From Carcharhinus amblyrhynchos (Eukaryota), in contig OZ336888.1 in NCBI GenBank assembly GCA_965287045.1, positions 15,872,001-15,936,000 on the forward strand: a stretch of 64,000 bases of DNA, given 5' to 3'. This document shows, piece by piece, positions 868 to 62,884 of the stretch; position 1 is the stretch's first letter, and every line of letters starts with the position of its first letter. The translations under genes and the position numbers were made by a program. The notes under the pieces were generated by a model. The model was given only the letters and a program-made list of their open reading frames with translations. It ran no database searches and was not told the DNA's origin.

Positions 868-1070
868 GGCCGACAAGAACTGTAGGAACTGGAGGACCAA
901 TCACTTCAGAGACCACTGTTGGTGGTGAGTTTTGCTTTCATCATACCTGCCACGTTAAATTAATTTGTGTGCTTTGTGGACTAATGGTGTTTCATGTTAT
1001 CTCTGCTCCCTAGGGCCAATGGCAATGACTGTGACAGGTACACTTCCTGTTTCTGAGAGCAGAATTACTG
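868..1070 (+). CDS. Exon doublet A/B: 868-924, 1014-1070
   Basis: AG/GT intact, 89-nt intron; [19 protein letters not shown] + [19 protein letters not shown]. Confidence 0.8.
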
Positions 1071-4000: not shown

Positions 4001-7000
4001 AACTTCAGAGACTACCATCAGTGGTGAGTATTGTTTTTGGCATTCTCATCACCTGATATTAATTTATTTGATTGGCAGATTAATATTATATCAAATTTGC
4101 TCCACTCCTTAGGACCAACAGCAATGACTCCATCAGGCAGACCAACTGTTCCTGAGACAGCAATTACTGGTGAGTAGATCTCCTTACACATTATAATTTG
4201 ATGTTAATGTTGAGCAATTTGTAATTTAATACTCTGCAGCATTTTTTTCTGTTACCTTGGACAAACACCAGCTAGGGTGACAGTAAATTCTATTGTTTCT
4301 GAAACTGGGAGTAATGATGGGAGTATTCATTCACATTGTCACAATAATATTTCAATAATTCTGAATAATTAACTTTCGTAAGCAAACAACATTTGAAATT
4401 TGTGAAATTTAACATTGTGTTGCTGAGAGGAGCTCTATGATATTGCTATTCCTTCAGGCTGAGGAACTATTCTGAAGAGAAACCTCAGAATTTGAGTGAG
4501 GGAATTATTGCTGATCCACAATTATGGTTCACATTTGATCCTTACTGAGGTGCAAGCAATTCCTGGTTAAGAATTTGACTAAGATAATGATGCTTATCAC
4601 TAAATATTTCCTTGGAAATGAACTGCAGTAGCAGTGAATAAATACTCTGTCCAAATTACTGTGCTGTTTAGGGATAACAATAACTGCAGGAACTGGAGGA
4701 CCAACCACTTCAGAGACCACCGTCAGTGGTGAGTTCCAGTTTTATCATGCTCGGCACAGGAAATGAACTTGCATGCTTTGTGAACTAATATTGTTTGACA
4801 TTATCTGTGCGCCCTAGGGCCAATGGCAATGACAGTGACAGGTACACTTCCTGTTTCTGAGAGCAGAATTACTGGTGAGCAGAGCTTCTTTCATATTATA
4901 ACCTTCTGTTAGTTTTGTGCTAATTGTGATTTTTAACTCTGCCACAAGTCTGCAGAGTTGCTGGACCTGCACCAGGTAGCAGGGCAGTCACTCAGATTAT
5001 TTCCGACGCTGGAATTCACAATGAGTGAATATATTCTCAGTGTCGTATAATTTTTGCACTGCCAAGATGACCGAGCCAAGGGACATGTTGTTGGTGCATC
5101 ATTGCAGTTCACTGTATTTTCAGTGGATTCAGATGCAATGGTATAAATGTGCACCAATTGAGTTGTTCCATATTGCTTTCGGTAAGCATCTTATTGGTTG
5201 AATATGCTTGTTTCTGCTTTGTACTGATAATACTTTCTGATGGGAAAATGGTCAATGGATAGGAATTAGTGATTGCTTTATTTCAGGTTTTGTGCACATT
5301 TACTTCTCAGTGCAGAAACTGTAAACACATACATGTTGGTGTTTTACTTGCCTCACTGCTAATTGATGCATATTCATGTTGACGCTGACAGAGCTTTTCA
5401 TTGAACAGAAATTGGAATAAACATGCTTCCTGAGAAAGTAGATGTCTTGAATTTTGAATAATAATGTTTAGAAGAGGGCAGTGTTATTGGCTATGATTAT
5501 TGAGCAAAATGTAGGCTGACACGATCTTGTGAATATGAACGGCAGCATATTTATATTCAAATGGACAGTAATGAGCAGAACTGTCCAATTTGTAATGGGT
5601 AATGGAAAATGCTGGTGTTGACGTTCTGAATTTGTGTAATGGAAGCGAATATTGAAATTTGGAGTCTGTCCATTTGAGTCATGCATTTGAATTTTGAAGA
5701 CCTTGGAAATTGCTGCCATTCAGTTTGGAAGCTGTATCCATTTATTTGCATGGATGATGATGGCTTAGACAATGATACTTTGAGGAGTACAATAATGCTT
5801 GTTCATTCTGAGAAGGAATAGTCAGGCTCAAAAGTATCCAATTTGTAGAATGCAGCAGAGTGTGATTTGACCCACCTTCCTCCTCCTACGCGCTCTGCCT
5901 GAAAAAAAAGGTGCGATTCTGAATCATGCCGCAGAAGCCTGTGGGTGAGGTTGATCGCCTCTGAAACACTGCAGCTGCGATCGGAGCCTTTAACTGCGTA
6001 AAAGCTTTGAAAAATGCTTCCCCGCTACATCACTCAATAATGGCTCCCACCCCGGGCCCCACAGACATTGCCTGACCTCCACAACGTTACTGACCCCCTT
6101 ATCCTCCCACCCCTTGTTCCCTCCAGACCGATCACAGCCCCCTGCTCATCTTCCCTCCTCCACCGATGTCACGCAGAGTGGCACTTGACTACTCCTTCCA
6201 CTCCGCCCTCACCAGAGAGCGATCTGATCCGCATCCCTCTTCCTCCCTACCAAAGACCGATCTTACTCAGCTGCCTCCTTCCTCACCACCAGTAAGGATA
6301 TGACCAACCTTCGTCCTCCCCCGATCAAAGATCCATCTGACCCGCCACCCCCCACCAGAAATCCATCTGATCCGCCTTCCTTGTCACCCCCCCATCAGAG
6401 ATCCATCTGACCCACCTCCCTCCTTCCCCATCACCAGAGAGCATTCTGGCCTGCCTCCCTCCTCCTCCCCCACCAGAGATCATCTGGCCCACCTCCCTCC
6501 CCCTCACCCTCCTGCTCTGCAACTGCCAATCTCAGTTAGGGAGAGCTGTTGGAAACTCTGAAATTACCTCTTCAGAAGCTGGAGCGCCCGAAACAGATCT
6601 TTGCGGACAATGTCTGTTTCACGCTGAATCTGAATGTGCGAACGCAATGGTAAAGGGGGAAATGCCAGTAAGTTTGGACATCCAACCCATTAAGTCAATT
6701 TAAATGCATTTCAATTGACATTGCGCCTGTTTCGGGCACGGTGCTGATCACGGCCATTTTAGGCGATTGGTAGAGGGGGGATCAGACACGCGGATGGTTG
6801 CAAATCAAGGTACCTGCCTCACGTCTGACTCTACTAAGTTATCATGCTCCAAAATGGGTGCAACCAATTTGTAAAAGCAGGCTCATAATAATGCTGATAC
6901 TAAACATTTCCTTGGAAATGAATTGCAGTAGTAGTGAATAAATACTCTGTACCAATTTCTGTGCTGTTTAGGGCCAACAAGAACTGTAGGAACTGGAGGA

Positions 7001-10000
7001 CCAATCACTTCAGAGACCACTGTCAGTGGTGAGTTTTGGTTTTATCGTAATGGCCACATCAAATTAATTTGTGTGCTTCGTGGACTAACCTTGTTTCATA
7101 TTATCTCTGTTCCCTCGGGCCAATAGCAATGACTGTGACAGGAACACTTCCTGTTTTTGAGAGCAGAATTACTGGTGAGCAGAACTTCTTTCACGTTATA
7201 AACTGCCGTTATTTTTTGTGCAATTTGTGATTTTTAACTCTATCATAGTTCTGCAGTTACATTGGATCTGTACCAGATAGCAGGGCAGTCACTCAGATAG
7301 TTTCAGAAACTTTGATAAACTATGATTGAATGTATTCTCTGTGTCAGATGATGTTTGTGATGCCAAGGTGTCCCAGGCAAGGGACATGTTGTTGGTGCGT
7401 CATTGCAGTTCACTGCATTTTCAGGCCATTCAGATGGAAGGGTTTGAATGTGTACCAGTTGAGTTGTTCCATTTTGCTTTTGGTCAGCATCTTCTTGTTT
7501 GAATGTGCTTGTTTTTGCTTTATCCTGATAGTAAAATGTCCAACAGATAGGAATGAGTGATTGCTTTATTTCAGTTTTTGTACACACTTGCTTCTCAGTG
7601 CAGAAACTGTAAACACATGCATGTTGGTGTTTTACTTGTCTCACTGCTAATTGATGCATATTCATGTTGAGACTGACAGCGCTTTTCATTGAACAGAAAT
7701 TTGAATAGTGCATGCAACCTGATACAGTAGATGTCTTGCATTATCAATTATAATGATTGGAAGAGGACAATGTTATTGATATAATTATTGATCATAATGT
7801 CGGTTGTGTCCACGAAGTCCGCATGAGACCATGAATAGCAGCATTTCTGAATTTCATAAGTTACTAGTGAGACAGACTGTCCAAACTTTAATGAACACTG
7901 GTAGATCCTGCTTTTGACATTCTGTTTTGGAAGCGTATATTGCAATTTAAAATCTAACATATTTGCATTTGCATTTTGAAGAGCTCGGGTTTTGGTGCTG
8001 TTGATTTTAGATTGCTGAATGCATTTATTCGCGTGAATGATGATTATAAAGCATCAGGGGATTTAAGATATATAGTAATGCACAGTTTGTCTGTGACCGA
8101 AAAGCCAAACGGAATGCACCTCATTTGTTGATTTGCAGAATGACGCAGTCTTTTATTTTGATTTGGCAGTATGATATACCTTGCTGGTGAAATTTATATG
8201 CAGACAGACAGACATAATTATTCCTTCCAACAGAATAAATTCAAAGCAGTAATTTCAATATCAAAACAAATTCCTGATTGGAAATGGCAGTTGTTCAGTG
8301 GGATTTTTGACAATCAAACTTTATCCTTTGAAAAACGAATGATTTAATCAGCTTTAAAATTTAACTTTTACTGGCAAATAACATCCAAATCATTTTGAGA
8401 AAATTTAATGCCACATTTGCTGACTCCATGTTGAATATTTTGTAATTACCTGAAGAGTAGCTGGTTTTTGAAGGCAACTTATTCGAGGAACTGTTCTCAA
8501 TGATAAGCGCCGCATGTGTGGAAGGGAATGATTAATTTTATAGTTTGCCTATGGATATCTTCCTTTTTCCTTCAAAATGTGGAACCATTTGCCACTTGAG
8601 GCTTTGAATGACATAACGATGCTGAGATGAATGAAAAATCTTGGGAAACAATTGCAGCGGTAGTCAATAAATATTCTGTTCAAATTCCACTTTTCTTTAG
8701 GGTCGACACCATTTACAGGAACTGGAAGACCTACAACGTCTGAAACCACTGTCAGTGGTGAGTATTGTTTTTAGCATCCTCGTCACCTGCAATAAGTTGG
8801 TTTGAGTGGTGGATTAATATTGTTTGAAATTTTCTGGACTACATAGGGCCAACAGCAATGACTCCATCAGGTGTACCAACTGTTCCCGTGACAGCAATTA
8901 CAGGTGAGTGGATCTCCTTACACATTATAACCTGATATTCATGTTGAACAATTTGTAATTGAATACTCTGCAGCATTTTTTTTGTTAGCTTGGAGCAGCA
9001 CCAACTAGGATGATGATAAATCCCATTGTTTCTGAAACTAGGAGTAATGATGGGTGTATTCGTTCACATTGTCACAATAATGTTTCAGTACCTTCAATAA
9101 TTAGCTTTCACAAGCAAATAACATTTGAAACTTGTGAAATTTAACATTGTGTACTGAGAGCAGGTCAATGATTTTGTTGTTCCTTCAGGCAACATGGCTG
9201 AGGAATTGTTCTGAAGGGAAAGCTCAGAATTTGAGTGAGGGAATTATTGCTGATCTGCGAGATAGTTTATGGGTCATCTTTGATCCTTACTGAGGTGCAA
9301 GGAATTCCTGGTTAAGAATTTAAGAACATAAGAACATAAGAAATAGGAGCAGGAGTAGGCCATCTAGCCCCTCGAGCCTGCCCCACCATTCAAAAAGACC
9401 ATGGCTGATCTGTCGTGGCTCAGTTCCACATTCCAGCCCTCTCCCCATAACCCTTAATCCCCTTGCCTATCAAAAACCTATCAACCCGCGTCTTAAAAAT
9501 ATTTAGCGAGGCAGCCTCCACCACTTCAACGGGCAGAGAATTCCAGAGATTCACCACCCTTTGAGTGAAGAAGTCCCTCCTCAACTCCGTTCTAAACTGC
9601 CCCCCCTTTATCTTGAGGCTGTGCCCTCTAGTCCTACTGCCCTTCCTGAGCGGGAAGAGCCTCTCCACCTCTATCCTATCCATCCCATTCATAAGTTCAG
9701 TGGGAGTTTAAGATAATGATGCTTATAATTAAACATTTCCTTGGAAATGAATTGCAGTAGTGGTGAATAAATACTGTTCAAATTTCTGTGCTGTTTAGGG
9801 CCGACAAGAACTGTAGGAACTGGAGGACCAATCACTTCAGAGACCACTGTTGGTGGTGAGTTTTGCTTTCATCATACCTGCCACGTTAAATTAATTTGTG
9901 TGCTTTGTGGACTAATGTTGTTTCATGTTATCTCTGCTCCCTAGGGCCAATGGCAATGACTGTGACAGGTACACTTCCTGTTTCTGAGAGCAGAATTACT

Positions 10001-13000: not shown

Positions 13001-16000
13001 GATTGGCAGATTAATATTATATCAAATTTGCTCCACTCCTTAGGACCAACAGCAATGACTCCATCAGGCAGACCAACTGTTCCTGAGACAGCAATTACTG
13101 GTGAGTAGATCTCCTTACACATTATAATTTGATGTTAATGTTGAGCAATTTGTAATTTAATACTCTGCAGCATTTTTTTCTGTTACCTTGGACAAACACC
13201 AGCTAGGGTGACAGTAAATTCCATTGTTTCTGAAACTGGGAGTAATGATGGGAGTATTCATTCACATTGTCACAATGATATTTCAATAATTCTGAATAAT
13301 TAACTTTCGTAAGCAAACAACATTTGAAATTTGTGAAATTTAACATTGTGTTGCTGAGAGGAGCTCTATGATATTGCTATTCCTTCAGGCTGAGGAACTA
13401 TTCTGAAGGGAAACCTCAGAATTTGAGTGAGGGAATTATTGCTGATCCACAATTATGGTTCACGTTTGATCCTTACTGAGGTGCAAGCAATTCCTGGTTA
13501 AGAATTTGACTAAGATAATGATGCTTATCACTAAATATTTCCTTGGAAATGAACTGCAGTAGCAGTGAATAAATACTCTGTCCAAATTACGGTGCTGTTT
13601 AGGGATAACAATAACTGCAGGAACTGGAGGACCAACCACTTCAGAGACCACCGTCAGTGGTGAGTTTCAGTTTTATCATGCTCGGCACAGGAAATGAACT
13701 TGCATGCTTTGTGAACTAATATTGTTTGACATTATCTGTGCGCCCTAGGGCCAATGGCAATGACAGTGACAGGTACACTTCCTGTTTCTGAGAGCAGAAT
13801 TACTGGTGAGCAGAGCTTCTTTCATATTATAACCTTCTGTTAGTTTTGTGCTAATTGTGATTTTTAACTCTGCCACAAGTCTGCAGAGTTGCTGGACCTG
13901 CACCAGGTAGCAGGGCAGTCACTCAGATTATTTCCGACGCTGGAATTCACAATGAGTGAATATATTCTCAGTGTCATATAATTTTTGCACTGCCAAGATG
14001 ACCGAGCCAAGGGACATGTTGTTGGTGCATCATTGCAGTTCACTGTATTTTCAGTGGATTCAGATGCAATGGTATAAATGTGCACCAATTGAGTTGTTCC
14101 GTATTGCTTTCGGTAAGCATCTTATTGGTTGAATATGCTTGTTTCTGCTTTGTACTGATAATACTTTCTGATGGGAAAATGGTCAATGGATAGGAATTAG
14201 TGATTGCTTTATTTCAGGTTTTGTGCACATTTACTTCTCAGTGCAGAAACTGTAAACACATACATGTTGGTGTTTTACTTGCCTCACTGCTAATTGATGC
14301 ATATTCATGTTGACGCTGACAGAGCTTTTCATTGAACAGAAATTGGAATAAACATGCTTCCTGAGAAAGTAGATGTCTTGAATTTTGAATAATAATGTTT
14401 AGAAGAGGGCAGTGTTATTGGCTATGATTATTGAGCAAAATGTAGGCTGACACGATCTTGTGAATATGAACGGCAGCATATTTATATTCAAATGGACAGT
14501 AATGAGCAGAACTGTCCAATTTGTAATGGGTAATGGAAAATGCTGGTGTTGACATTCTGAATTTGTGTAATGGAAGCGAATATTGAAATTTGGAGTCTGT
14601 CCATTTGAGTCATGCATTTGAATTTTGAAGACCTTGGAAATTGCTGCCATTCAGTTTGGAAGCTGTATCCATTTATTTGCATGGATGATGATGGCTTAGA
14701 CAATGATACTTTGAGGAGTACAATAATGCTTGTTCATTCTGAGAAGGAATAGTCAGGCTCAAAAGTATCCAATTTGTAGAATGCAGCGGAGTGTGATTTG
14801 ACCCACCTTCCTCCTCCTACGCACTCTGCCTGAAAAAAAAGCTGCGATTCTGAATCATGCCGCAGAAGCCTGTGGGTGAGGTTGATCGCCTCTGAAACAC
14901 TGCAGCTGCGATCGGAGCCTTTAACTGCGTAAAGGCTTTGAAAAATGCTTCCCCGCTACATCACTCAATAATGGCTCCCACCCCGGGCCCCACAGACATT
15001 GCCTGATCTCCACAACATTACTGACCCCTTTATCCTCCCACCCCTTGTTCCCTCCAGACCGATCACAGCCCCCTGCTCATCTTCCCTCCTCCACCGATCT
15101 CACGCAGAGTGGCAGTTGACTACTCCTTCCACTCCGCCCTCACCAGAGAGCGATCTGATCCGCATCCCTCTTCCTCCCTACCAAAGACCGATCTTACTCA
15201 GCTGCCTCCTTCCTCACCACCAGTAAGGATATGACCAACCTTCGTCCTCCCCCGATCAAAGATCCATCTGACCCGCCACCCCCCACCAGAAATCCATCTG
15301 ATCCGCCTTCCTTGTCACCCCCCCGTCAGAGATCCATCTGACCCACCTCCCTCCTTCCCCATCACCAGAGAGCATTCTGACCTGCCTCCCTCCTCCTCCC
15401 CCACCAGAGATCATCTGGCCCACCTCCCTCCCCCTCACCCTCCTGCTCTGCAACTGCCAATCTCAGTTAGGGAGAGCTGTTGGAAACTCTGAAATTACCT
15501 CTTCAGAAGCTGGAGCGCCCGAAACAGATCTTTGCGGACAATGTCTGTTTCACGCTGAATCTGAATGTGCGAACGCAATGGTAAAGGGGGAAATGCCAGT
15601 AAGTTTGGACATCCAACCCATTAAGTCAATTTAAATGCATTTCAATTGACATTGCGCCTGTTTCGGGCACGGTGCTGATCACGGCCATTTTAGGCGATTG
15701 GTAGAGGGGGGATCAGACACGCGGATGGTTGCAAATCAAGGTACCTGCCTCACGTCTGACTCTACTAAGTTTTCATGCTCCAAAATGGGTGCAACCAATT
15801 TGTAAAAGCAGGCTCATAATAATGCTGATACTAAACATTTCCTTGGAAATGAATTGCAGTAGTAGTGAATAAATACTCTGTACCAATTTCTGTGCTGTTT
15901 AGGGCCAACAAGAACTGTAGGAACTGGAGGACCAATCACTTCAGAGACCACTGTCAGTGGTGAGTTTTGGTTTTATCGTAACGGCCACATCAAATTAATT

Positions 16001-46000: not shown

Positions 46001-49000
46001 AAGATGAATAGAAAATCTTGGGAAACAATTGCAGCATGAATGAATAAACATTCTGTACAAATTCTGCTTCTCTTTAGGGCCGACACCGTTCACAGGAACT
46101 GGAAGACCTACAACTTCAGAGACTACTGTCAGTGGTGAGTATTGTTTTTGGCATTCTCGTCACCTGAAATTAATTGATTTGATTGGTAGATTAATATTGT
46201 TTCAAATTGGCTCCTCTACTTAGGGCCAACAGCAATGACTTCACCAGGTGTACCAGCATTTCCCGAGATGGCAATTACTGGTGGGTGGATCTCCTTACAT
46301 GTTATAACCCGATGTTAATTTCAAGCTATTTGTAATTTAATGCTCTGCAGCATTTTTTCTGTTACCCTGGACCAGTACCAACTTGGATGATAGTAATTCC
46401 CATTTGTTTCAGAAACTGGGAGTAATTATGGCTGTATTCATTCACATTGTCACAATCATATTTCAAAATCTTGAATAATTAGCTTTCAGAAGCAAATAAC
46501 ATTTGAAACTTGTGAAATTTAACATTGTGTTGCTGAGAGCAGGTCAATGATATTGTTGTTCCTTTAGGAAACATGGCTGAGGAAGTGTTCTGAAGGGAAA
46601 CCTCAGCATTTGAGTGAGAGAATTATTGCTGATCTGCAAGGTGGTTTATGGGTCATGTTTGATCCTTACTGAGGTGCAAGCAATACCTAGTGAAGAATTT
46701 GACTCTGATAATAATGCTCATAATTAAACATTTCCTTGGAAATGAAATGCAGTAGTAGTGAATAAATACTCTGTCCATAATCTATGCTGTTTAGGACCAA
46801 CAAGAACTGCAGGAACTGGAGGACCAACCACTTCAGAGACCACCATCAGTGGTGAGTTTCAGTTTTATCGTACTCACCACATGAAATTAATTTTGTGCTT
46901 CATGGACTCATCTTATTTCCCATTATCTCTGCTCCTTAGGCCCAATGGGAATGACTGTGACAGGTACACTTCCTGTTTCTGAGAGCAGAATTACTGGTGA
47001 GCAGAGCTTCTTTCATGTTAAAAGCTTCTGTTAGTTTTGTAGTATTTGTGATTTTTAACGCTACCCTAGGCATACAATTGTGTTGGACCTGCACCAGGTA
47101 GCAGGGCAGTTATTCAGATAGTTTCTGAACCTGTGATTAAGAACGATTGAATGTATTCTCAATGTCATACGACGTTTGCGATGCTGAGGTGTCCCAGGGA
47201 AGGGATATGTTGTTGGTGCGTCATTGCAGTACTTTCAGTCCATTCAGATGGAAGGGTTTGAATGTGTACCAGTTGAGTTGTTCCATATTGCTTTTGGTCA
47301 GCATCTTCTTGTTTGAATGTGCTTGTTTTTCCTTTGTCCTGATGGTAAAATGGTTCACAGATAGGAATTAATGATTTCTTTATTTCAGTTTTTGTACACA
47401 TTTGCTTCTCAATGCAGAAACTGTAAACACATGCATTTTGGTGTTTCACTTGCCTCACTGCTATATGATGCTTATTCATGTTGAAACAAAAGAGCTCTTC
47501 ATAGAAGGAAAATTGGAATATTAAGTGCTACCTGACATAGTAGACGTCTTGCATTATCAATTATGACATTCAGAAGAGGACGGTGTTATTGAATACGATT
47601 ATTAATGATAATGCAGGTTGTGCGGCATGCCCCAAAGTCAACTTGAGACATAAACGGCAGCATTTGTGAATTTGAAAAGATAATGATAAGGAAGGCTTTC
47701 CAAACACTAATGAGCATGGGTATATCTGGTCTTGACATTCTGCATTTCTGTTTTAGAAGCGTATATTGAAATTTAAAATTTGATATATATATACATGTGC
47801 GCTTTGAAAAGCTAGGATTTTGGTGCTATTGACTTTAGATCGCTAAATCCATTTATTCGAATCAGTGATGACTGGTAAGGGATCAGGAGATTTGAGACGT
47901 ACAATAATGCATGGTTTGCTTGTCACCGAAAGGCCGAACGGAAAGCATTTGTAGATTTGCAGAATGACAGAGTCTTTTGTTTTGGTTGGGCAGTGTGTTA
48001 GACCTTGCTGGTGAAAGTTATATGCAGACATACAGACATAATAATTCCTTCCAACAAAATAAATTTGAAGCAGTAAATGTCAATATCATAATGAATTCCT
48101 GATCTGGAATGTCACCTTTGGGATTTTTGAAAGACATGTGTTATTCTTTGGAAAATAAATGATTTAGTCATTGTTAAAATTTAACTTTCACTGGCAAATA
48201 ATATCCAAATAATTTTGAGAAAACTTGGTGACAAATTTGCTGACTGCATGTTGAATGTTTTCTAATTGCCTGAAAAGTAGGTGGTTTTAGAAGGCAACTT
48301 GGTCAAGGACCAGTTCTGAATGGTAAGCGCTGCATTTGTGGAAGGGAATGATTAATTTTGTAGTTAGTGAATGGATATTTTCCTTTCTCCTTTGCAGTGT
48401 GGACCCATTTGTCACTTGAGGCTTTGACTGACATAATGATGCTAAGATGAATAGAAAATCTTGGGAAACAATTGCAGCATGAATGAATAAACATTCTGTA
48501 CAAATTCTGCTTCTCTTTAGGGCCGACACCGTTCACGGGGACTGGAAGACCTACAACTTCAGAGACTACTGTCAGTGGTGAGTATTGTTTTTGGCATTCT
48601 CGTCACCTGAAATTAATTGATTTGATTGGTAGATTAATATTGTTTCAAATTGGCTCCTCTACTTAGGGCCAACAGCAATGACTTCACCAGGTGTACCAGC
48701 ATTTCCCGAGATGGCAATTACTGGTGGGTGGATCTCCTTACATGTTATAACCCGATGTTAATTTCAAGCTATTTGTAATTTAATGCTCTGCAGCATTTTT
48801 TCTGTTACCCTGGACCAGTACCAACTTGGATGATAGTAATTCCCATTTGTTTCAGAAACTGGGAGTAATTATGGCTGTATTCATTCACATTGTCACAATC
48901 ATATTTCAAAATCTTGAATAATTAGCTTTCAGAAGCAAATAACATTTGAAACTTGTGAAATTTAACATTGTGTTGCTGAGAGCAGGTCAATGATATTGTT

Positions 49001-52000
49001 GTTCCTTTAGGAAACATGGCTGAGGAAGTGTTCTGAAGGGAAACCTCAGCATTTGAGTGAGAGAATTATTGCTGATCTGCAAGGTGGTTTATGGGTCATG
49101 TTTGATCCTTACTGAGGTGCAAGCAATACCTAGTGAAGAATTTGACTCTGATAATAATGCTCATAATTAAACATTTCCTTGGAAATGAAATGCAGTAGTA
49201 GTGAATAAATACTCTGTCCATAATCTATGCTGTTTAGGACCAACAAGAACTGCAGGAACTGGAGGACCAACCACTTCAGAGACCACCATCAGCAGTGAGT
49301 TTTGGTTTTATTGTACCTGCCACATTAAATCAATTTGTGTGCTTTGTGGACTAATGTTATTTCATCTTATCTCTGCTCCCTAGGGCCAATGGCAATGACT
49401 GCGACAGGTACACTTCCTGTTTCTGCGAGCAGAATTACTGGTGAGCACAGCTTCTTTCATGTTATGAGCTGCTGTTAGTTTTGTGCTATTTGTGAGTTTT
49501 AACACTACCGTATGTCTGCAGTTACGTTGGACCTGCACCAGGCAGCAGGGCAGTCAGTCAGATAGTTTCCGAAGATGTAACTAACAGTGATTGAATGTAT
49601 TCTCAGTGTCATACAATGTTTGCGATTCCAAGGTGTCCCAGTGAAGGGACATGTTGTCGGTGCGTCATTGTAGTTCACAGTATTTTCAGTCCATTCAGAT
49701 GGAAGGGTTTGAATGTGTACCAGTTGAGTGGATCCATATTGCTTTTTTTCAGCAGCATCTTGTTTGAATGTGCTTGTTTTTAATTTGTGCTGAATGTGAA
49801 ATGGTCAACAGATAGGAATTAGTGATTGCTTCATTTCAATTTTTCTACACATTGACTTCTCAGTGCAGAAGCTGTAAAGACATGCATGTTGGTGTTTCAC
49901 TTGCCTGCTAATTGATGCATATTCATGTTGACACTGAAGGAGTTTTTCATGAATGGAAATTGGAATAATAAATGCTACCTGATAGAGTAGATGTCTTGCA
50001 TTATCAATTATAATGTTTGAAAGAGGCAGTGTTATTGAATATGATTATTGATCATAATTCAGGCCGTCTCTGTGATGTCCGCTTGAGACCATGAATGGCA
50101 GCATTTAGGAATTTAAAAAGATAGTAAATAATAAGGCAGACTGTCCAAACTTTAATGAGCAGTCATAGATGCCGGTTTTGACATTCTGCACTGCTGTTTT
50201 GGAAGCATATATTGAAATTTAAAATGTGATATATTTACCTTTGCGTTTTGAAGAGCTAGTATTTTGGTGCTATTGACTTCAGATCGTTAAATCCATTTAT
50301 TCGCATTAAAGATGATCGATAAGCCATCAGGAGATTTGAGATGTATAGTAATGCACGGTTTGTCTGTGACTGAAAGGACAAAGTTGTAGACTTGTAGAAC
50401 GCCAGACTGTTTTATTTTGATTTGGCAGTATGGATAAACTTTGCTGGTGAAATGTATGTGCAGACAGGCAGAAATAATTATTCCCAACAGAATAAATTCA
50501 AAGCAGTAAATTTCAATATCATAATGAGTTCCTGATGAGAAATGACAGTGGGATTTTTGAAAGACATACCTTATTCTTTGGAAAATAAATGATTTAGCCA
50601 CTGTTAAAACTTCATTTTCACTGGCAAATACTCTCCAAATAATTTTGGGAAAATTTAGTGCCACATTTGCTGACCCCATGTTGAAGTTTTTGTAATTGCC
50701 CGAGAAGTAGCTGTTTTTTGAAGGCAACTTGGTCGAGGACCTGTTCTGAATAGTAAGCGCTGCATTTGCGGAAGGGAATGATTAATTTTGTAGTTTGCGT
50801 ACCGATATTTTCTTTTCTCCTTTGCGATGTGGAAGCGTTTGCCACTGGAGGCTTTGACTGACATAGTGATGCTAAGATGAATTAAAAATCTTGGGAAGCA
50901 ATTTCACAGTTAATGAATAAATATTTTGTACAAATTTTGCTTCTCTTTCGGGCCACCATCATTCACAGGAACTGGAAGACCTCCAACTTCAGAGACTACT
51001 GTCAGTGGTGAGTATTGTTTTTGGCATCCTCGTCATCTGAAATTAATTGATTTTATTTCTAGATTAATATTGTTTCAAATTCGCTCAATTACATAGGGCC
51101 GACAGCAATGACTCCATCAGGTGTACCAGCTGTTCCTGAGACAGCAATTACTGGTAAGTGGATCTCCTTACACATTATAACCTGATGATAATTTTGAGCA
51201 ATTTGTAATTTAATACTCTGCAGCATTTTTTCTGTTACCTTGAAGCAGCAACAAATCAGATGGTAGTAAGTCCCATTGTTTCTGACACTGGGAGTAATGA
51301 TGGGTGTATTAGTTCACATTGTCACAATAATCTTTCCGAATCTTGAATAATTAGCCTTCGCAATCAAACAACATTTGAAACTTGTGAAACTTAACGTTGT
51401 GTTGCTGAGAGCAGGTCAATGATTTTCCTTTAGGAAACATGGCTGAGCAAGTGTTCTGACGGGAAACCTCAGCGTTTGAGGGAGAGAATTATTGCTGTTC
51501 TTGAGAATGTTTATGGGTCATGTTTGATCCATACTGAGGTGCAAGCAATTACTGGTTAAGGATTTGACTAAGATAACGATGCTGATAATTAAACATTTGC
51601 TTGGAAATGAATTGCAGTAGTAGTGAATAAATGCTCTGTCCAAATGTCTGTGCTGTTTAGGGCCAACAAGAACTGCAGAAACTGGAGGACCAACCACTTC
51701 AGAGACCACCATCAGTGGTGAGTTTCAGTTTTATCATACTCACGGCATGAAATTAATTTGTGTGCTGCATGGACTCATCTTGTTTCATATTACTCTGCTC
51801 CCTAGGCCCGATGGGAATGACAGTGACAGGCACACTTCCGGTTTCTGAGAGCAGAATTACTGGTGAGCAGAACTTCTTTTATGTTATAAGCTGCTGTTAG
51901 TTTTGTGCTATTTGTGTTTTTTAACTCAACCGTAAGTCTACAGTTATGTTGGAACTGCACGCTGGAGCAGGGCAGTCACTGAGATAGTTTCTGAACCTGT

Positions 52001-55000
52001 GATTAAGAATGATTGAATGTATTCTCAGTGTTGTATGATGTTTGTGATGCCAAGGTATCCCAGGCAAGGGACATATTGTTAGTGCATCATTGCAGTTCAC
52101 TGTGTTTTCAGTCCATTCAGATGGAAGGGATTGAATGTGTGTCAGTCGAGTTGTTCCATATTGTCTTTGTTAAGCATCTTCTTGGTTGAATGTCCTTATT
52201 TTTGCTTTGTGCTGAATGTGAAATGGTCAACAGACAGGAATTAGTGATTGCTTTATTGCAGTTTTTGTACACATTTGCTTGTCAGTGCACAAACTGTAAA
52301 TACATGCATGTTGGTGTTTCACTTGCCTCGGTGCTAATTGATACATATTCATGTTATCACCGAAGGAGCTTTTCCGTGAATGGAAATTGGAATAGTAAAT
52401 GCTACCTGATAGAGTAGATGCCTTGCATTATCAATTATAATGTTTTATAATCAATTATAATCAATTATAATGGTGCAGCAGGTGATCAAGAAGGCGAATG
52501 GGATGCTGGCCTTTATAGCGAGGGGGATAGAATATAAAAGCAGGGAGGTCTTGCTGCGACTGTACAGGGCAGTGGTAAGGCCGCAGCTGGAGTACTGTGT
52601 GCCGTTTTGGTTGCCGCACTAGCGCAAGGATATTTTGGCCTTGGAGGGAGTGCAGAGGAGGTTCACTAGGCTGATACCGGAGATGAGGGGGTTGGACTAT
52701 GAAGAGAGGCTGAATAGACTGGGTCTGTACTCGTTGGAGTTTAGAAGGATGAGGGGGGATCTTATAGAGACGTATAAGATAATGAAGGGGATGGATAGGG
52801 TAGAGGTAGAGAGATTCTTCCTGCTCAGAAAGGACAGCAGGACTAGAGGGCACAGCCTCAAGATAAGGGAGGGCAGTTTAGAACAGAGTTGAGGAGGAAC
52901 TTCTTCACTCAAAGGGTGGTGAATCTCTGGAATTCTCTGCCCATTGAAGTGGTGGAGACTACCTCGCTAACAATATTTAAGACACGGGTAGGTAGATTTT
53001 TGGTAGGCAAGGGAATTAAGGGTTATGGGGAGAAAGCAGGAAAGTGGAACTGAGCCACTACAGATCAGCCATGATCTTATTGAATGGCGGGACAGGCTCG
53101 AAGGGCTAGATGGCCTACTCCTGCTCCTATTTCTTATGTTCTCATGTTCTTACGTTCTTACGAAAGTGGGCAGTGTTATTGAACGTGATTATTGATCATA
53201 ATGTAGGTTGTGCCCGTGATATCCATGAATGGCAGCATTTATGAATTTAAAAAGATAGTAAGGCAGACTGTCCAAACGTTAATGAGCACTGGAAGATCCT
53301 GGTTTTGACATTCTGCATTGCTGTTTTGGAAGCACGTATTGTAATTTAAAATTTAACATATTTTCATTTGCATTTTGCAGAGCTAGGATTTTGGTGCTAT
53401 TGATTTTAGATCACTAAATGCATTTATTCACGTGAATGATGATTGGTAAGGAATCTGGAGATTTGAGATGTACAATAATGCGTGGTTTGTCTGTGACTGA
53501 AAAGCCTACTGGAAAGCTCCAGATTTGTGGCCTTGCAGAACGACAGAACCTTTTATTTTGATTTGGCAGTATGATAGACCTTGCTGGTGAAATTTATGTG
53601 CAGATGGACAGACATGATTATTCCTTCCAACAAAATAAATTCAAAGCAGTAAATTTCAATATCATAATGAGTTCCTCATCAGAAATGCCGCTTTTTCAGT
53701 GGGATTTTTGAAAGACAAACTTTATTCTTTGGAAAACAAATGATTTAGTTAGCTTTAAAATTTCACTTTTACTGGCAAATAACATCCAAATCATTTTGAG
53801 AGAATTTAATGCTACATTTGTTGACTTGATGTTGAATTTTTTTGTAATTGCCTGAAAAGTAGCTGGTTTTTGAAAGCAACTTGGTAAAGCAACTGTTCTG
53901 AATGGTAGGTGCTGCATTTGTGGAAGGGAATGTTTAATTTTATAGTTTGCATTTGGATATTTTCCTTTTCCCTTCGCAATGTGGAACCATTTGCCACTTG
54001 AGGCTTTGACTGACATCGTGATGCTAAGATGAACAAAAAATTACGGGAAACAATTGCAGCAGTAATGAATAAATATTCTGTACAAATTCTGCTTTTCCTT
54101 AGGGCCGACACCATTCACAGGAACTAGAAGACCTACAACTTCAGAGACTACTGTCAGCGGTGAGTATTGTTTTTGGCACTCTCGTGTCCTGAAATTAATT
54201 TATTTGATGGGGCGATTAATATTGTTTCAAATTTGCCCCACGACTTAGGGCCAACGGCAATGACTCCATCAGGTGTACCAACTGTTCCTGAGACAGCAAT
54301 TACTGGTGAGTAGATCTCCTTACACATTATAGCCTGATATTAATTTCAAGCTATTTGTAATTTAACACTCTGCAGCATTTTTTTCCTGTTACCTTAAACC
54401 AGCATGAACTGGAATGATAGTAAATCCCATTGTTTCTGAAACGAAGAGTAATGATGTATGTATTCATTCACATTGTCACAATAGTATTTCAAAACCTCGA
54501 ATAATTAGTTTTCAAAAGCAAACAACATTTGAAACTTATGAAATTTAATGTTGCGTTTGCTGAGAGCTGGACAATTATATTGTTATTCCTTTAGTCAACA
54601 TGCCTGAGGAATTATTCTGGAGGGAAACCTCAGAATTTGAGTGAGAGAATTATTACTGATCTGCGAGATTGTTTATGGGTCATGTTTGATCCGTACTGAG
54701 GTGTAAGCAATACCTGGTTAAGAATTTGACTAAGATAATGATACTTATAGTTAAACATTTCCTTGGAAATGAATTGCAGTCGTGGTGAATAAATACTCTG
54801 TCCAAATGTCTGTGCTGTTTAGGGCCATCAAGAACTGCAGGAACTGGAGGACCAACCACTTCAGAGACCACCGTCAGTGGTGAGTTTCAGTTTATCGTAC
54901 TCACCACATGAAATTAATTCTTGTGCTTCCTGGACGAATGTTATTTCATATTATTTGTGCTCCTAGGCCCAGTGGCAATGACTGTGACAGGTACACTTCC

Positions 55001-58000
55001 TGTTTCTGAGAGCAGAATTACTGGTGAGCAGAGCTTCTTTCACATTAAAAGTTGCTATTGGTTTTGTGCTGTTTGCGGTTTTTAGCTCAACCGTACATCT
55101 ACAGTTACGTTGGACCTACACGCGGGAGCAGGGCAGTCACTCAGACAGCTTCCAAAACTGTGATTAAGAATGATTGAATCTATTCTCAGTGCCATACGGT
55201 GTTTGTGATGCCAAGGTGTCCCAGCCAAGGGATATGTTGTTGGTGCGTCATTGCAGTTCTCTGTATTTTCAGTCCATTCAGAGGAAAGGATTTGAATGTG
55301 TACCAGTTGAGTTGTTCCATATTGCTTTTGATAAGCATCTTCTTGTCAGCATGTGCTTGTTTTTGCTTTGTGGTGATGGTAGAACGGTCAACAGGTAGGA
55401 ATTATTGATTGCCTTCTTTCAGTTTTAGTATACATTTGCTTCTCAGTGCAGAAACTGTAAAAACATGCACGTTGGTGTTTCTCTTGTCTTATTGCTAATT
55501 GATGCATATTCATGTTGACACTGACAGAGCTTTGCATTGAAGGGAAATTGGAATATTAAATGCTACCTGACAGAGTAGATGTCTTGCATTATCAATTCTA
55601 ACGTTTGGAAGAAGATAGTTATTGAATATGATTATTGATGAAAATGTAGGTTGCGCAACATGACCGTGAAGTCAGCTTGAGACTGCGAATGGCAGCATTT
55701 ATGGATTTAAAAAAAGTAATAATAAGGCAGACTGTCCAAACTTTAATGAGCAGTCATGGATGCTGGTTTTGACATTCTGCATTGCTGTTTTGGAAGTGTA
55801 TATTGAAATTTAAAATGTGATATATTTATGTTTGTGTTTTGAAGAGGTAGGATTTTGGTGCTATTGACTTCAGATCGTTAAATCCATTTATTTGCATGAA
55901 TGATGATCGATAAGGCATCAGGGGATTTGAGATGTACATTAATGCATGGTTTGTCTTTGACCGAAAGGCCGAATGGAAAGCACTTCGTTTGTAGACTTGC
56001 AGAACGACAGAACCTTTAATTTTGATTTGGCAGTATGATAGACCTTGCTGGTGAAATTTATGTGCATATATAATTTTGGGAAATCTTAGTGCCTCATTTG
56101 CTGACCCCATGTTGAAGTTTTTGTAATTGCCTGAAAAGCAGCTGGTTTTTGCAGTCAACTTGGTCAAGGACCTGTTCTGAATGGTAAGCGCTGCATTTGT
56201 GGAAGGGAATGATTAACTTTGTAGTTTCTGTATAGACATTTTCCTTTTTCCTTCGCAATGTGGAAGCATTTGCCATTTGAGGCTTTGACTGACATAGTGA
56301 TGCTAAGATGAATTAAAAATCTTGGGAAACAATTGCAGCATGAATGAATAAACATTCTGTACAAATTCTGCTTCTCTTTAGGGCCGACACCGTTCACAGG
56401 AACTGGAAGACCTACAACTTCAGAGACTACTGTCAGTGGTGAGTATTGTTTTTGGCATTCTCGTCACCTGAAATTAATTGATTTGATTGGTAGATTAATA
56501 TTGTTTCAAATTGGCTCCTCTACTTAGGGCCAACAGCAATGACTTCACCAGGTGTACCAGCATTTCCCGAGATGGCAATTACTGGTGGGTGGATCTCCTT
56601 ACATGTTATAACCCGATGTTAATTTCAAGCTATTTGTAATTTAATGCTCTGCAGCATTTTTTCTGTTACCCTGGACCAGTACCAACTTGGATGATAGTAA
56701 TTCCCATTTGTTTCAGAAACTGGGAGTAATTATGGCTGTATTCATTCACATTGTCACAATCATATTTCAAAATCTTGAATAATTAGCTTTCAGAAGCAAA
56801 TAACATTTGAAACTTGTGAAATTTAACATTGTGTTGCTGAGAGCAGGTCAATGATATTGTTGTTCCTTTAGGAAACATGGCTGAGGAAGTGTTCTGAAGG
56901 GAAACCTCAGCATTTGAGTGAGAGAATTATTGCTGATCTGCAAGGTGGTTTATGGGTCATGTTTGATCCTTACTGAGGTGCAAGCAATACCTAGTGAAGA
57001 ATTTGACTCTGATAATAATGCTCATAATTAAACATTTCCTTGGAAATGAAATGCAGTAGTAGTGAATAAATACTCTGTCCATAATCTATGCTGTTTAGGA
57101 CCAACAAGAACTGCAGGAACTGGAGGACCAACCACTTCAGAGACCACCATCAGCAGTGAGTTTTGGTTTTATTGTACCTGCCACATTAAATCAATTTGTG
57201 TGCTTTGTGGACTAATGTTATTTCATCTTATCTCTGCTCCCTAGGGCCAATGGCAATGACTGCGACAGGTACACTTCCTGTTTCTGCGAGCAGAATTACT
57301 GGTGAGCACAGCTTCTTTCATGTTATGAGCTGCTGTTAGTTTTGTGCTATTTGTGAGTTTTAACACTACCGTATGTCTGCAGTTACGTTGGACCTGCACC
57401 AGGCAGCAGGGCAGTCAGTCAGATAGTTTCCGAAGATGTAACTAACAGTGATTGAATGTATTCTCAGTGTCATACAATGTTTGCGATTCCAAGGTGTCCC
57501 AGTGAAGGGACATGTTGTCGGTGCGTCATTGTAGTTCACAGTATTTTCAGTCCATTCAGATGGAAGGGTTTGAATGTGTACCAGTTGAGTGGATCCATAT
57601 TGCTTTTTTTCAGCAGCATCTTGTTTGAATGTGCTTGTTTTTAATTTGTGCTGAATGTGAAATGGTCAACAGATAGGAATTAGTGATTGCTTCATTTCAA
57701 TTTTTCTACACATTGACTTCTCAGTGCAGAAGCTGTAAAGACATGCATGTTGGTGTTTCACTTGCCTGCTAATTGATGCATATTCATGTTGACACTGAAG
57801 GAGTTTTTCATGAATGGAAATTGGAATAATAAATGCTACCTGATAGAGTAGATGTCTTGCATTATCAATTATAATGTTTGAAAGAGGCAGTGTTATTGAA
57901 TATGATTATTGATCATAATTCAGGCCGTCTCTGTGATGTCCGCTTGAGACCATGAATGGCAGCATTTAGGAATTTAAAAAGATAGTAAATAATAAGGCAG

Positions 58001-61000
58001 ACTGTCCAAACTTTAATGAACAGTCATAGATGCCGGTTTTGACATTCTGCACTGCTGTTTTGGAAGCATATATTGAAATTTAAAATGTGATATATTTACC
58101 TTTGCGTTTTGAAGAGCTAGTATTTTGGTGCTATTGACTTCAGATCGTTAAATCCATTTATTCGCATTAAAGATGATCGATAAGCCATCAGGAGATTTGA
58201 GATGTATAGTAATGCACGGTTTGTCTGTGACTGAAAGGACAAAGTTGTAGACTTGTAGAACGCCAGACTGTTTTATTTTGATTTGGCAGTATGGATAAAC
58301 TTTGCTGGTGAAATGTATGTGCAGACAGGCAGAAATAATTATTCCCAACAGAATAAATTCAAAGCAGTAAATTTCAATATCATAATGAGTTCCTGATGAG
58401 AAATGACAGTGGGATTTTTGAAAGACATACCTTATTCTTTGGAAAATAAATGATTTAGCCACTGTTAAAACTTCATTTTCACTGGCAAATACTCTCCAAA
58501 TAATTTTGGGAAAATTTAGTGCCACATTTGCTGACCCCATGTTGAAGTTTTTGTAATTGCCCGAGAAGTAGCTGTTTTTTGAAGGCAACTTGGTCGAGGA
58601 CCTGTTCTGAATAGTAAGCGCTGCATTTGCGGAAGGGAATGATTAATTTTGTAGTTTGCGTACCGATATTTTCTTTTCTCCTTTGCGATGTGGAAGCGTT
58701 TGCCACTGGAGGCTTTGACTGACATAGTGATGCTAAGATGAATTAAAAATCTTGGGAAGCAATTTCACAGTTAATGAATAAATATTTTGTACAAATTTTG
58801 CTTCTCTTTCGGGCCACCATCATTCACAGGAACTGGAAGACCTCCAACTTCAGAGACTACTGTCAGTGGTGAGTATTGTTTTTGGCATCCTCGTCATCTG
58901 AAATTAATTGATTTTATTTCTAGATTAATATTGTTTCAAATTCGCTCAATTACATAGGGCCGACAGCAATGACTCCATCAGGTGTACCAGCTGTTCCTGA
59001 GACAGCAATTACTGGTAAGTGGATCTCCTTACACATTATAACCTGATGATAATTTTGAGCAATTTGTAATTTAATACTCTGCAGCATTTTTTCTGTTACC
59101 TTGAAGCAGCAACAAATCAGATGGTAGTAAGTCCCATTGTTTCTGACACTGGGAGTAATGATGGGTGTATTAGTTCACATTGTCACAATAATCTTTCCGA
59201 ATCTTGAATAATTAGCCTTCGCAATCAAACAACATTTGAAACTTGTGAAACTTAACGTTGTGTTGCTGAGAGCAGGTCAATGATTTTCCTTTAGGAAACA
59301 TGGCTGAGCAAGTGTTCTGACGGGAAACCTCAGCGTTTGAGGGAGAGAATTATTGCTGTTCTTGAGAATGTTTATGGGTCATGTTTGATCCATACTGAGG
59401 TGCAAGCAATTACTGGTTAAGGATTTGACTAAGATAACGATGCTGATAATTAAACATTTGCTTGGAAATGAATTGCAGTAGTAGTGAATAAATGCTCTGT
59501 CCAAATGTCTGTGCTGTTTAGGGCCAACAAGAACTGCAGAAACTGGAGGACCAACCACTTCAGAGACCACCATCAGTGGTGAGTTTCAGTTTTATCGTAC
59601 TCACGGCATGAAATTAATTTGTGTGCTGCATGGACTCATCTTGTTTCATATTACTCTGCTCCCTAGGCCCGATGGGAATGACAGTGACAGGCACACTTCC
59701 GGTTTCTGAGAGCAGAATTACTGGTGGGCAGAACTTCTTTTATGTTATAAGCTGCTGTTAGTTTTGTGCTATTTGTGTTTTTTAACTCAACCGTAAGTCT
59801 ACAGTTATGTTGGAACTGCACGCTGGAGCAGGGCAGTCACTGAGATAGTTTCTGAACCTGTGATTAAGAATGATTGAATGTATTCTCAGTGTTGTATGAT
59901 GTTTGTGATGCCAAGGTATCCCAGGCAAGGGACATATTGTTAGTGCATCATTGCAGTTCACTGTGTTTTCAGTCCATTCAGATGGAAGGGATTGAATGTG
60001 TGTCAGTCGAGTTGTTCCATATTGTCTTTGTTAAGCATCTTCTTGGTTGAATGTCCTTATTTTTGCTTTGTGCTGAATGTGAAATGGTCAACAGACAGGA
60101 ATTAGTGATTGCTTTATTGCAGTTTTTGTACACATTTGCTTGTCAGTGCACAAACTGTAAATACATGCATGTTGGTGTTTCACTTGCCTCGGTGCTAATT
60201 GATACATATTCATGTTATCACCGAAGGAGCTTTTCCGTGAATGGAAATTGGAATAGTAAATGCTACCTGATAGAGTAGATGCCTTGCATTATCAATTATA
60301 ATGTTTTATAATCAATTATAATCAATTATAATGGTGCAGCAGGTGATCAAGAAGGCGAATGGGATGCTGGCCTTTATAGCGAGGGGGATAGAATATAAAA
60401 GCAGGGAGGTCTTGCTGCGACTGTACAGGGCAGTGGTAAGGCCGCAGCTGGAGTACTGTGTGCCGTTTTGGTTGCCGCACTAGCGCAAGGATATTTTGGC
60501 CTTGGAGGGAGTGCAGAGGAGGTTCACTAGGCTGATACCGGAGATGAGGGGGTTGGACTATGAAGAGAGGCTGAATAGACTGGGTCTGTACTCGTTGGAG
60601 TTTAGAAGGATGAGGGGGGATCTTATAGAGACGTATAAGATAATGAAGGGGATGGATAGGGTAGAGGTAGAGAGATTCTTCCTGCTCAGAAAGGACAGCA
60701 GGACTAGAGGGCACAGCCTCAAGATAAGGGAGGGCAGTTTAGAACAGAGTTGAGGAGGAACTTCTTCACTCAAAGGGTGGTGAATCTCTGGAATTCTCTG
60801 CCCATTGAAGTGGTGGAGACTACCTCGCTAACAATATTTAAGACACGGGTAGGTAGATTTTTGGTAGGCAAGGGAATTAAGGGTTATGGGGAGAAAGCGG
60901 GAAAGTGGAACTGAGCCACTACAGATCAGCCATGATCTTATTGAATGGCGGGACAGGCTCGAAGGGCTAGATGGCCTACTCCTGCTCCTATTTCTTATGT

Positions 61001-62884: not shown

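Follow-up and report, generated by a model that had tools for sequence, protein, structure and literature searches.

The 64,000 nucleotides of Carcharhinus amblyrhynchos DNA analysed here (the window; positions 1-64000, i.e., C19:15,872,001-15,936,000 on the + strand of contig OZ336888.1) lie inside a single gene, and the short cassettes that recur in it are probably coding exons. They would make up the PTS domain in the middle of a gel-forming mucin of the MUC19 lineage, the product of a 292-kb shark gene that directly follows LRRK2. We infer that most of the cassettes are spliced into an mRNA with a coding sequence of ~17.8 kb; the spliceosome would join them and would leave out the splice-dead copies and a broken CysD exon. 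An initial annotation of the window had proposed a mucin gene with a PTS domain built of one repeat per exon, and this proposal is supported both by the flanking domains and by the tests of divergence and synonymous change reported below.

A profile scan combined with blastn revealed 92 cassettes on the + strand of the window, the first starting at 868 and the last ending at 62884, which comprise 26 A, 26 B, 20 C, and 20 D copies (91 from the profile scan plus one shortened A). This is exactly the number of 46 doublets (26 A/B and 20 C/D), or 92 micro-exons, of the initial annotation. The usual order is A-B-C-D, exemplified on the + strand by the A cassette at 868-924 (57 nt, phase 1-1, 19 aa) and, from the pattern scan, by B, C, and D cassettes at 1014-1070, 2610-2666, and 2756-2812. 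Median spacers measure 89 nt (A-B and C-D), 1,526 nt (B-C), and 512 nt (D-A), and mean identity is 74% for C vs. A and 66% for D vs. B. Canonical 57-nt cassettes account for 84 of the 92 copies; one further A (21532-21564, + strand) is cut in frame to 33 nt with both splice sites intact, and seven copies are splice-dead. Of the 92 cassettes, all described initially as bounded by a polypyrimidine-AG and GTGAG, 85 have intact splice sites and together encode 1,607 aa, but seven have a broken splice dinucleotide, i.e., five with a broken acceptor (7118, 27977, 28532, 50951, and 58812; the B cassette at 7118-7174 on the + strand, for instance, has CG) and two with a broken donor (35851 and 43069). 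Similarly, the length of exactly 57 nt applies to all bar two A copies, which measure 33 nt (the shortened one above) and 48 nt (near 28532). Every cassette is in phase 1 at both ends, and loss, gain or skipping of a cassette therefore keeps the frame, which makes dead copies tolerable.

The pattern AG-57nt-GTRAG matches the + strand of the window 81 times, and 78 of these matches are related array cassettes with an open phase-1 frame; the - strand has only two matches, and patterns with any other length between 40 and 79 nt match at most 23 times. Since the cassette copies are not independent, this count alone is no test against chance, a role that the selection tests fulfill instead. Tandem Repeats Finder, applied to the window, did not detect the array. 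C-rich minisatellites with periods of 29-40 nt do occur in the array introns (window positions 6202-6500, 15133-15429, 30277-30415, and 33973-34407), and some of them have been copied together with block duplications.

Scanning of 464 kb around the window showed that the whole array occupies 211 kb (C19:15,815,715-16,027,124) and holds 264 cassettes (260 profile matches and four indel copies), i.e., 246 splice-competent and 18 splice-dead ones. Joining of the 246 predicts 4,657 aa with 38% Ser+Thr, 51% PTS, and no Cys, so that the estimate of ~1,600 aa in the initial annotation is accurate for the window but too low for the repeat domain. The split codon at the junctions, which had been considered to stay Gly, does so at 226 of 241 junctions array-wide but not at all of them (two window exons end in A), and this sign of coding is confounded since the conserved junction G's are also favoured by the splice-site consensus. 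The exon-C motif has 26 matches in the 2.92-Gb genome, all of which are located within the array on the + strand.

Self-matches cover nearly the full length of most 10-kb bins in the array, and multi-kb block duplications are 95-99% identical; within the window, the block at 48209-60306 (+ strand) is 95.3% identical, at an offset of 7,861 nt, to a block running from 56070 past the window end and represents a recent tandem duplication. An ancestral two-exon doublet may have duplicated to give A-B and C-D, and the ~2.4-kb ABCD unit would then have been amplified together with its introns, presumably by unequal crossing-over. Diverged, partly decayed cassettes are present at both array ends (L014:7840-8222 and L030:2214-2440, near C19:15,810,166 and 16,028,214), as is expected where unequal crossing-over evens out the middle of an array but not its edges. 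These self-matches and near-identical duplications also suit a quite different reading, in which a long intron contains satellite-like, non-coding repeats and the AG/GT-ended 57-nt units are a by-product of the amplification of a single unit. In an array dominated by self-matching duplications the raw number of 57-nt units proves little, and it is the pattern of variation between copies that makes this reading hardly credible.

Selection was measured by variant counts and by pairwise differences between real copies. To this end, 76 A-B and 56 C-D units were aligned, and after omission of 5 of the 76 A-B units with large deletions and collapse of identical copies, 69 and 53 were used. The comparison of exon and intron divergence and the dN/dS and synonymous-change checks proposed in the initial annotation both came out in favour of coding: between nearest real copies the exons differ by 5.45% (743/13,644) vs. 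9.65% (3,040/31,510) for the introns, and the cassettes have an excess of synonymous variants (83 of 186 possible seen vs. 140 of 444 possible nonsynonymous ones), with a dN/dS-like ratio of about 0.63 (0.62-0.65 by two methods). Control intron windows gave ratios of 0.93-0.95 and the other five frames 0.70-1.0, every one of them with stop variants, although the antisense frame with the ratio of 0.70 had only one vs. 6.1 expected. None of the 18 possible nonsense variants was seen in the cassettes, where 11.3 would be expected from intron rates. The splice dinucleotides of nearest copies differ by 0.62% (GT) and 3.96% (AG). Codon positions 1, 2, and 3 differ by 3.6, 4.2, and 6.0% in A-B units vs. 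8.6% for the inner intron core, and by 6.1, 3.7, and 7.1% vs. 7.1% in C-D units. Synonymous changes themselves also remain under the intron rate (0.72-0.76).

Splice-competent cassettes have three distinct indels, each of a length divisible by three, whereas only one of the 17 indels in the 89-nt introns is of this kind (Fisher p 0.0035, which, like other p-values obtained here, is optimistic because the copies are related by duplication). No stop occurs in any of the 246 splice-competent cassettes. The report of an array free of stops and frameshifts consequently applies to these cassettes, but array-wide two splice-dead copies, both with a dead acceptor, carry 1-nt insertions, one of which leads to a stop. 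Faster divergence of dead cassettes was not seen (3.5 differences in the 14 dead cassettes tested vs. 3.55 in 242 live ones), and a release from selection in these copies therefore lacks support. Rescue of dead acceptors by an in-frame AG at +9 was likewise unsupported, as nearly all D copies have this AG (50/56) and the numbers are too small. Taken together, the cassettes are likely under modest purifying selection, weak on residues and strong on frame and splice sites, which is the pattern expected of a PTS domain. The frame-specific absence of stops, the synonymous excess, the frame-keeping indels, and the conserved GT/AG largely refute an origin as satellite-like intron DNA. Moreover, the gene minus its array would have almost no PTS domain, and its paralogues (see below) share the design with different sequences.

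Exons for the other parts of a gel-forming mucin were indeed found on both sides of the array, on the same strand and in mucin order. On the N-terminal side, 29 exons (C19:15,744,450-15,806,641, + strand), placed with the Mustelus “mucin-19-like” protein as guide, encode 1,179 aa without a stop, i.e., a signal peptide, three VWD-C8-TIL units, and two short PTS exons. The VWD, C8, and TIL domains match Pfam above the cut-off on single exons, and the signal peptide was read by eye and by its match to Mustelus XP_078090731.1 (P0001). An intron in the second VWD unit is of the GC-AG type (C19:15,765,275; L010:3183-3275), the frame being open only with the GC donor. Two exons at the other end (C19:16,031,297-16,031,405 and 16,036,313-16,036,475, + strand; exon prediction and Pfam) encode a cystine knot in frame with the array and are followed by a polyadenylation signal; they match DAN (E 0.0013) and Cys_knot (E 0.0008), each as a half-domain below the curated cut-off. 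The 605-aa open frame in the intron between them (L030:7367-9184, - strand) looks like a LINE reverse transcriptase and is presumably a young insertion. No match to a fourth VWD was obtained between the array and the cystine knot, and no VWC exon was found in the gene. With the CysD exon and the 18 splice-dead cassettes skipped, the joined model has 277 exons, 17,781 nt, 5,926 aa, and no internal stops. Additional small exons close to the 5′ end are not part of this model, nor are a few diverged cassettes at the array edges (15,810,166 and 16,028,214). The span of the model far exceeds the 64 kb that had been put forward as a minimum for the gene. Gel-forming mucins are secreted, are O-glycosylated at Ser/Thr, form dimers via the cystine knot and multimers via D3, and in this way build the mucus gel; by analogy, the predicted shark protein would be secreted and O-glycosylated and would dimerise via its cystine knot and multimerise via D3.

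The closest database protein is the “mucin-19-like” protein of Mustelus asterias (XP_078090731.1), which was the one match among 11 candidates for the first VWD exon (89%) and is identical to the N-terminal part at 1,073 of 1,175 aligned residues (91%). It is the sister of the array gene in trees and its likely orthologue, but the Mustelus model (1,421 aa) has an intact CysD and ends there, without array and without cystine knot. In the shark gene studied here the corresponding exon, between D3 and the array (+ strand, from C19:15,807,110; L014:5110-5400), is broken: it still matches Pfam Mucin2_WxxW (E 0.018), has 85% identity to the Mustelus protein and an intact acceptor, but, as assembled, it carries a frameshift in comparison with Mustelus and its 3′ part is missing. 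A search of the array with XP_078090731.1 gave no match to CysD remnants at E<0.05. In the likely Rhincodon orthologue (P0002), three CysD units are interspersed with repeats bearing a weak resemblance to classes A and C. Comparison of the repeat peptides with 120 relatives resulted in weak matches only, the best family-like one being 12 residues of this same Rhincodon protein (score 46).

Inclusion of the CysD exon would stop translation ahead of the array. The exons flanking it are both phase 1, so that it can be skipped in frame, and such skipping, which a full-length reading frame needs, is what we infer. The frameshifted and truncated CysD exon can also be read as a sign that a formerly coding array now belongs to a gene that is largely silent in this species or has recently become a pseudogene, the signal of selection having been inherited. 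This would fit with the 18 of 264 cassettes that are splice-dead and with the D1-D3 branch of the array gene, which at 0.075-0.085 is about threefold longer than that of Mustelus (0.025-0.028). We nevertheless regard decay of the gene as unlikely, because none of the 29 N-terminal and two cystine-knot exons is damaged and their phases match, 246 splice-competent cassettes do not contain a single stop, and the phase-1 neighbours of the CysD exon allow it to be bypassed.

Alternatively, the intact CysD acceptor and the early stop that follows from inclusion could mean that the gene mainly yields a short, PTS-less protein consisting of D1-D3 and a partial CysD, the array and the cystine knot being confined to a minor isoform. 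The Mustelus model likewise stops shortly after CysD, and Muc19 proteins without PTS have been reported in Xenopus (PMC4948705). However, a short main product leaves unexplained both why 246 cassettes are under purifying selection and why the cystine-knot exons, with their polyadenylation signal, are intact. In addition, a number of database models from this clade break off within the repeats, which suggests a failure of annotation; we deem a short main product highly improbable. A long mucin, produced by skipping of the CysD exon, accordingly remains the reading that we prefer.

The genomic surroundings support the assignment to MUC19. LRRK2 is located directly upstream, with its kinase exon at C19:15,707,435-15,707,593 (PDB match, E 2e-27; Pfam ANK_LRRK2 and Beta-prop_LRRK2); it was found by exon scanning, while a genome search with the COR-A family gave no LRRK2 match on C19. 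Beyond LRRK2 lies a sugar-transporter gene on the - strand (Pfam Sugar_tr), which, given its position, is presumably SLC2A13. In the 190 kb viewed after the mucin cluster described below, exons at C19:17,037,000-17,110,000, at the place of human CNTN1, are presumably laminin-beta-like. The order transporter-LRRK2-mucin in the shark matches SLC2A13-LRRK2-MUC19 of the human order SLC2A13-LRRK2-MUC19-CNTN1 (PMC7019335).

In trees of D1-D3 (FastTree with 48 rows and IQ-TREE with 26 rows), the array gene, its paralogues (six genes in all), and other chondrichthyan proteins join tetrapod MUC19 with a support of 100. These trees contain 42 database rows chosen from 180 listed, with one MUC6 row and no spiggin row, and were midpoint rooted. 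The alternative of a clade with MUC2/MUC5, which was named after the first tree had been seen, is rejected (p-AU 3e-30). The array gene has neither the D1-D3 grouping nor the fourth VWD of the MUC2/MUC5 group. With mammalian MUC19 it shares the absence of a fourth VWD but not that of CysD, given its broken CysD and the CysD matches in paralogues. In view of the presence of CysD together with the grouping with tetrapod MUC19, the array gene belongs to the MUC19 lineage by descent, and not by the domain layout of mammals.

The array gene is the first of six gel-forming mucin genes between 15.74 and 16.95 Mb on C19, each with a cystine-knot end; the five further MUC19-lineage paralogues occupy C19:16,136,000-16,950,000, with gene 6 on the - strand. 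Four genes of this cluster, including the array gene, are of the micro-exon type. A strict detector identified 67, 107, and 20 phase-1 PTS micro-exons, mostly of 45-63 nt and with differing sequences, in genes 3, 4, and 6, respectively. It found none in genes 2 and 5, which have a single large PTS exon instead, with PTS frames that stay open for 1,106 and 688 aa. Paralogues 2, 4, 5, and 6 have VWD/C8-like matches after the PTS. Gene 4 has 28 CysD matches, mostly 3.4 kb apart and with several PTS micro-exons per unit (C19:16,543,000-16,666,000), a CysD+PTS module that was likely amplified recently. NCBI-predicted isoforms in the gene-3 clade differ by clean PTS deletions, which measure 13-17 aa or, as longer blocks, 33-86 aa in all 13 compared from skate and 37-74 aa in four of five from sawfish, the fifth differing by 1 aa; among predicted models of a paralogue, such deletions are what skipping of cassettes would give. 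A second group, with five mucin-type VWD matches, is present at C6:63.15-64.21 Mb. The one gene examined there is MUC6-like (66%); it extends across some 180 kb, contains long open frames, and has no micro-exon array in the 200 kb read (63.53-63.73 Mb).

None of the 12 runs listed for the last exon and 3′ UTR is on record as RNA. Reads of four runs were inspected at the array end and the first cystine-knot exon, where the 15 joints listed out of 553 all fall in interspersed repeats and none at a cassette boundary. The three small runs also cover intronic bins, thus resembling low-coverage DNA. These reads have no bearing on expression. In the DNA-like run X5 the summed depth is about 110-270 over cassette bins vs. 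about 6 in single-copy bins, which gives no copy number but hints weakly that the array is multi-copy in another sample as well. The A-B junction string predicted in the initial annotation has no match in the 464 kb of genomic sequence. In single-nucleus data from dogfish, muc19 (paralogue unspecified) is among the markers given for mucosal cells of the skin (PMC13558645).

The MUC19/spiggin lineage (PMC4948705, PMC2180178) resembles the shark gene in its three VWD-C8-TIL units, PTS, and cystine knot without a fourth VWD, and shares its place after LRRK2 and its position as sister group in the trees. The spiggins of stickleback are a tandem expansion of the same lineage (PMC2180178) and three Muc19 paralogues have been reported for Callorhinchus (PMC4948705); the shark cluster is also tandem-expanded, with six paralogues. 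Unlike this lineage, however, the shark gene has a (broken) CysD, which Lang et al. (2016) regard as a characteristic domain of MUC2/MUC5 (PMC4948705), no VWC was found in it, and its PTS is distributed over about 250 exons. The initial annotation named MUC19-type genes as a precedent for exon-split repeats, but the longest isoform of human MUC19 is reported to have an uninterrupted central exon (PMC13345508).

In the one-exon-per-repeat design each repeat is a separate symmetric exon, and both genomic structure and selection show this arrangement here. Human MUC19 probably has well over a hundred exons. Chicken Muc13 has one exon per 20-aa PTS repeat with EST support, and Lang et al. (2006) proposed that exon-split PTS is ancestral and that its length is set by splicing (PMC1552070). 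That protein is a transmembrane SEA mucin with at least 12 repeats, while the shark gene is of the secreted gel-forming type with ~250 exons of four classes. In SmPoMuc of Schistosoma mansoni an exon has been amplified with its flanking introns as a genomic tandem repeat that undergoes concerted evolution, but the protein is unrelated, its exon has 27 nt, and there are at most about 20 repeats per gene (PMC2576457). The repeats of chicken MUC2, a gel-forming mucin, span exons 32-45 (PMC3549977), although it is from another lineage and has about 10 repeats of 69 aa; Xenopus FIM-C.1, reportedly polymorphic via alternative splicing (PMC7177656), belongs to another lineage as well. The accessible text on these two genes contains no report of hundreds of PTS exons. 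A published description of the shark array or of a cluster of mixed design was not found in a literature coverage that mostly excludes subscription papers. Hence, both the class of protein and the principle of its design have precedents, and what is apparently new, and surprising, is the scale, together with the mixed-design cluster.

It is possible, though on balance doubtful, that the array is a splicing-tuned polymer, in which some 250 frame-neutral exons would yield mucins of variable length and repeat mix, by cell or tissue, from one allele, that the cluster records repeated switches between single-exon and micro-exon designs within one family, and that CysD and D4 were original features of the MUC19 lineage and were lost in mammals. 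Four micro-exon and two single-exon genes, side by side, make the ideas of an ancestral exon-split design and of length set by splicing testable in one locus. The closest database model stops short of the repeats and so lacks four-fifths of the protein, which our results recover; they also illustrate that repeat-like DNA can hide a 292-kb gene with some 277 exons. They bear on the evolution of MUC19 and on the composition of shark mucus.
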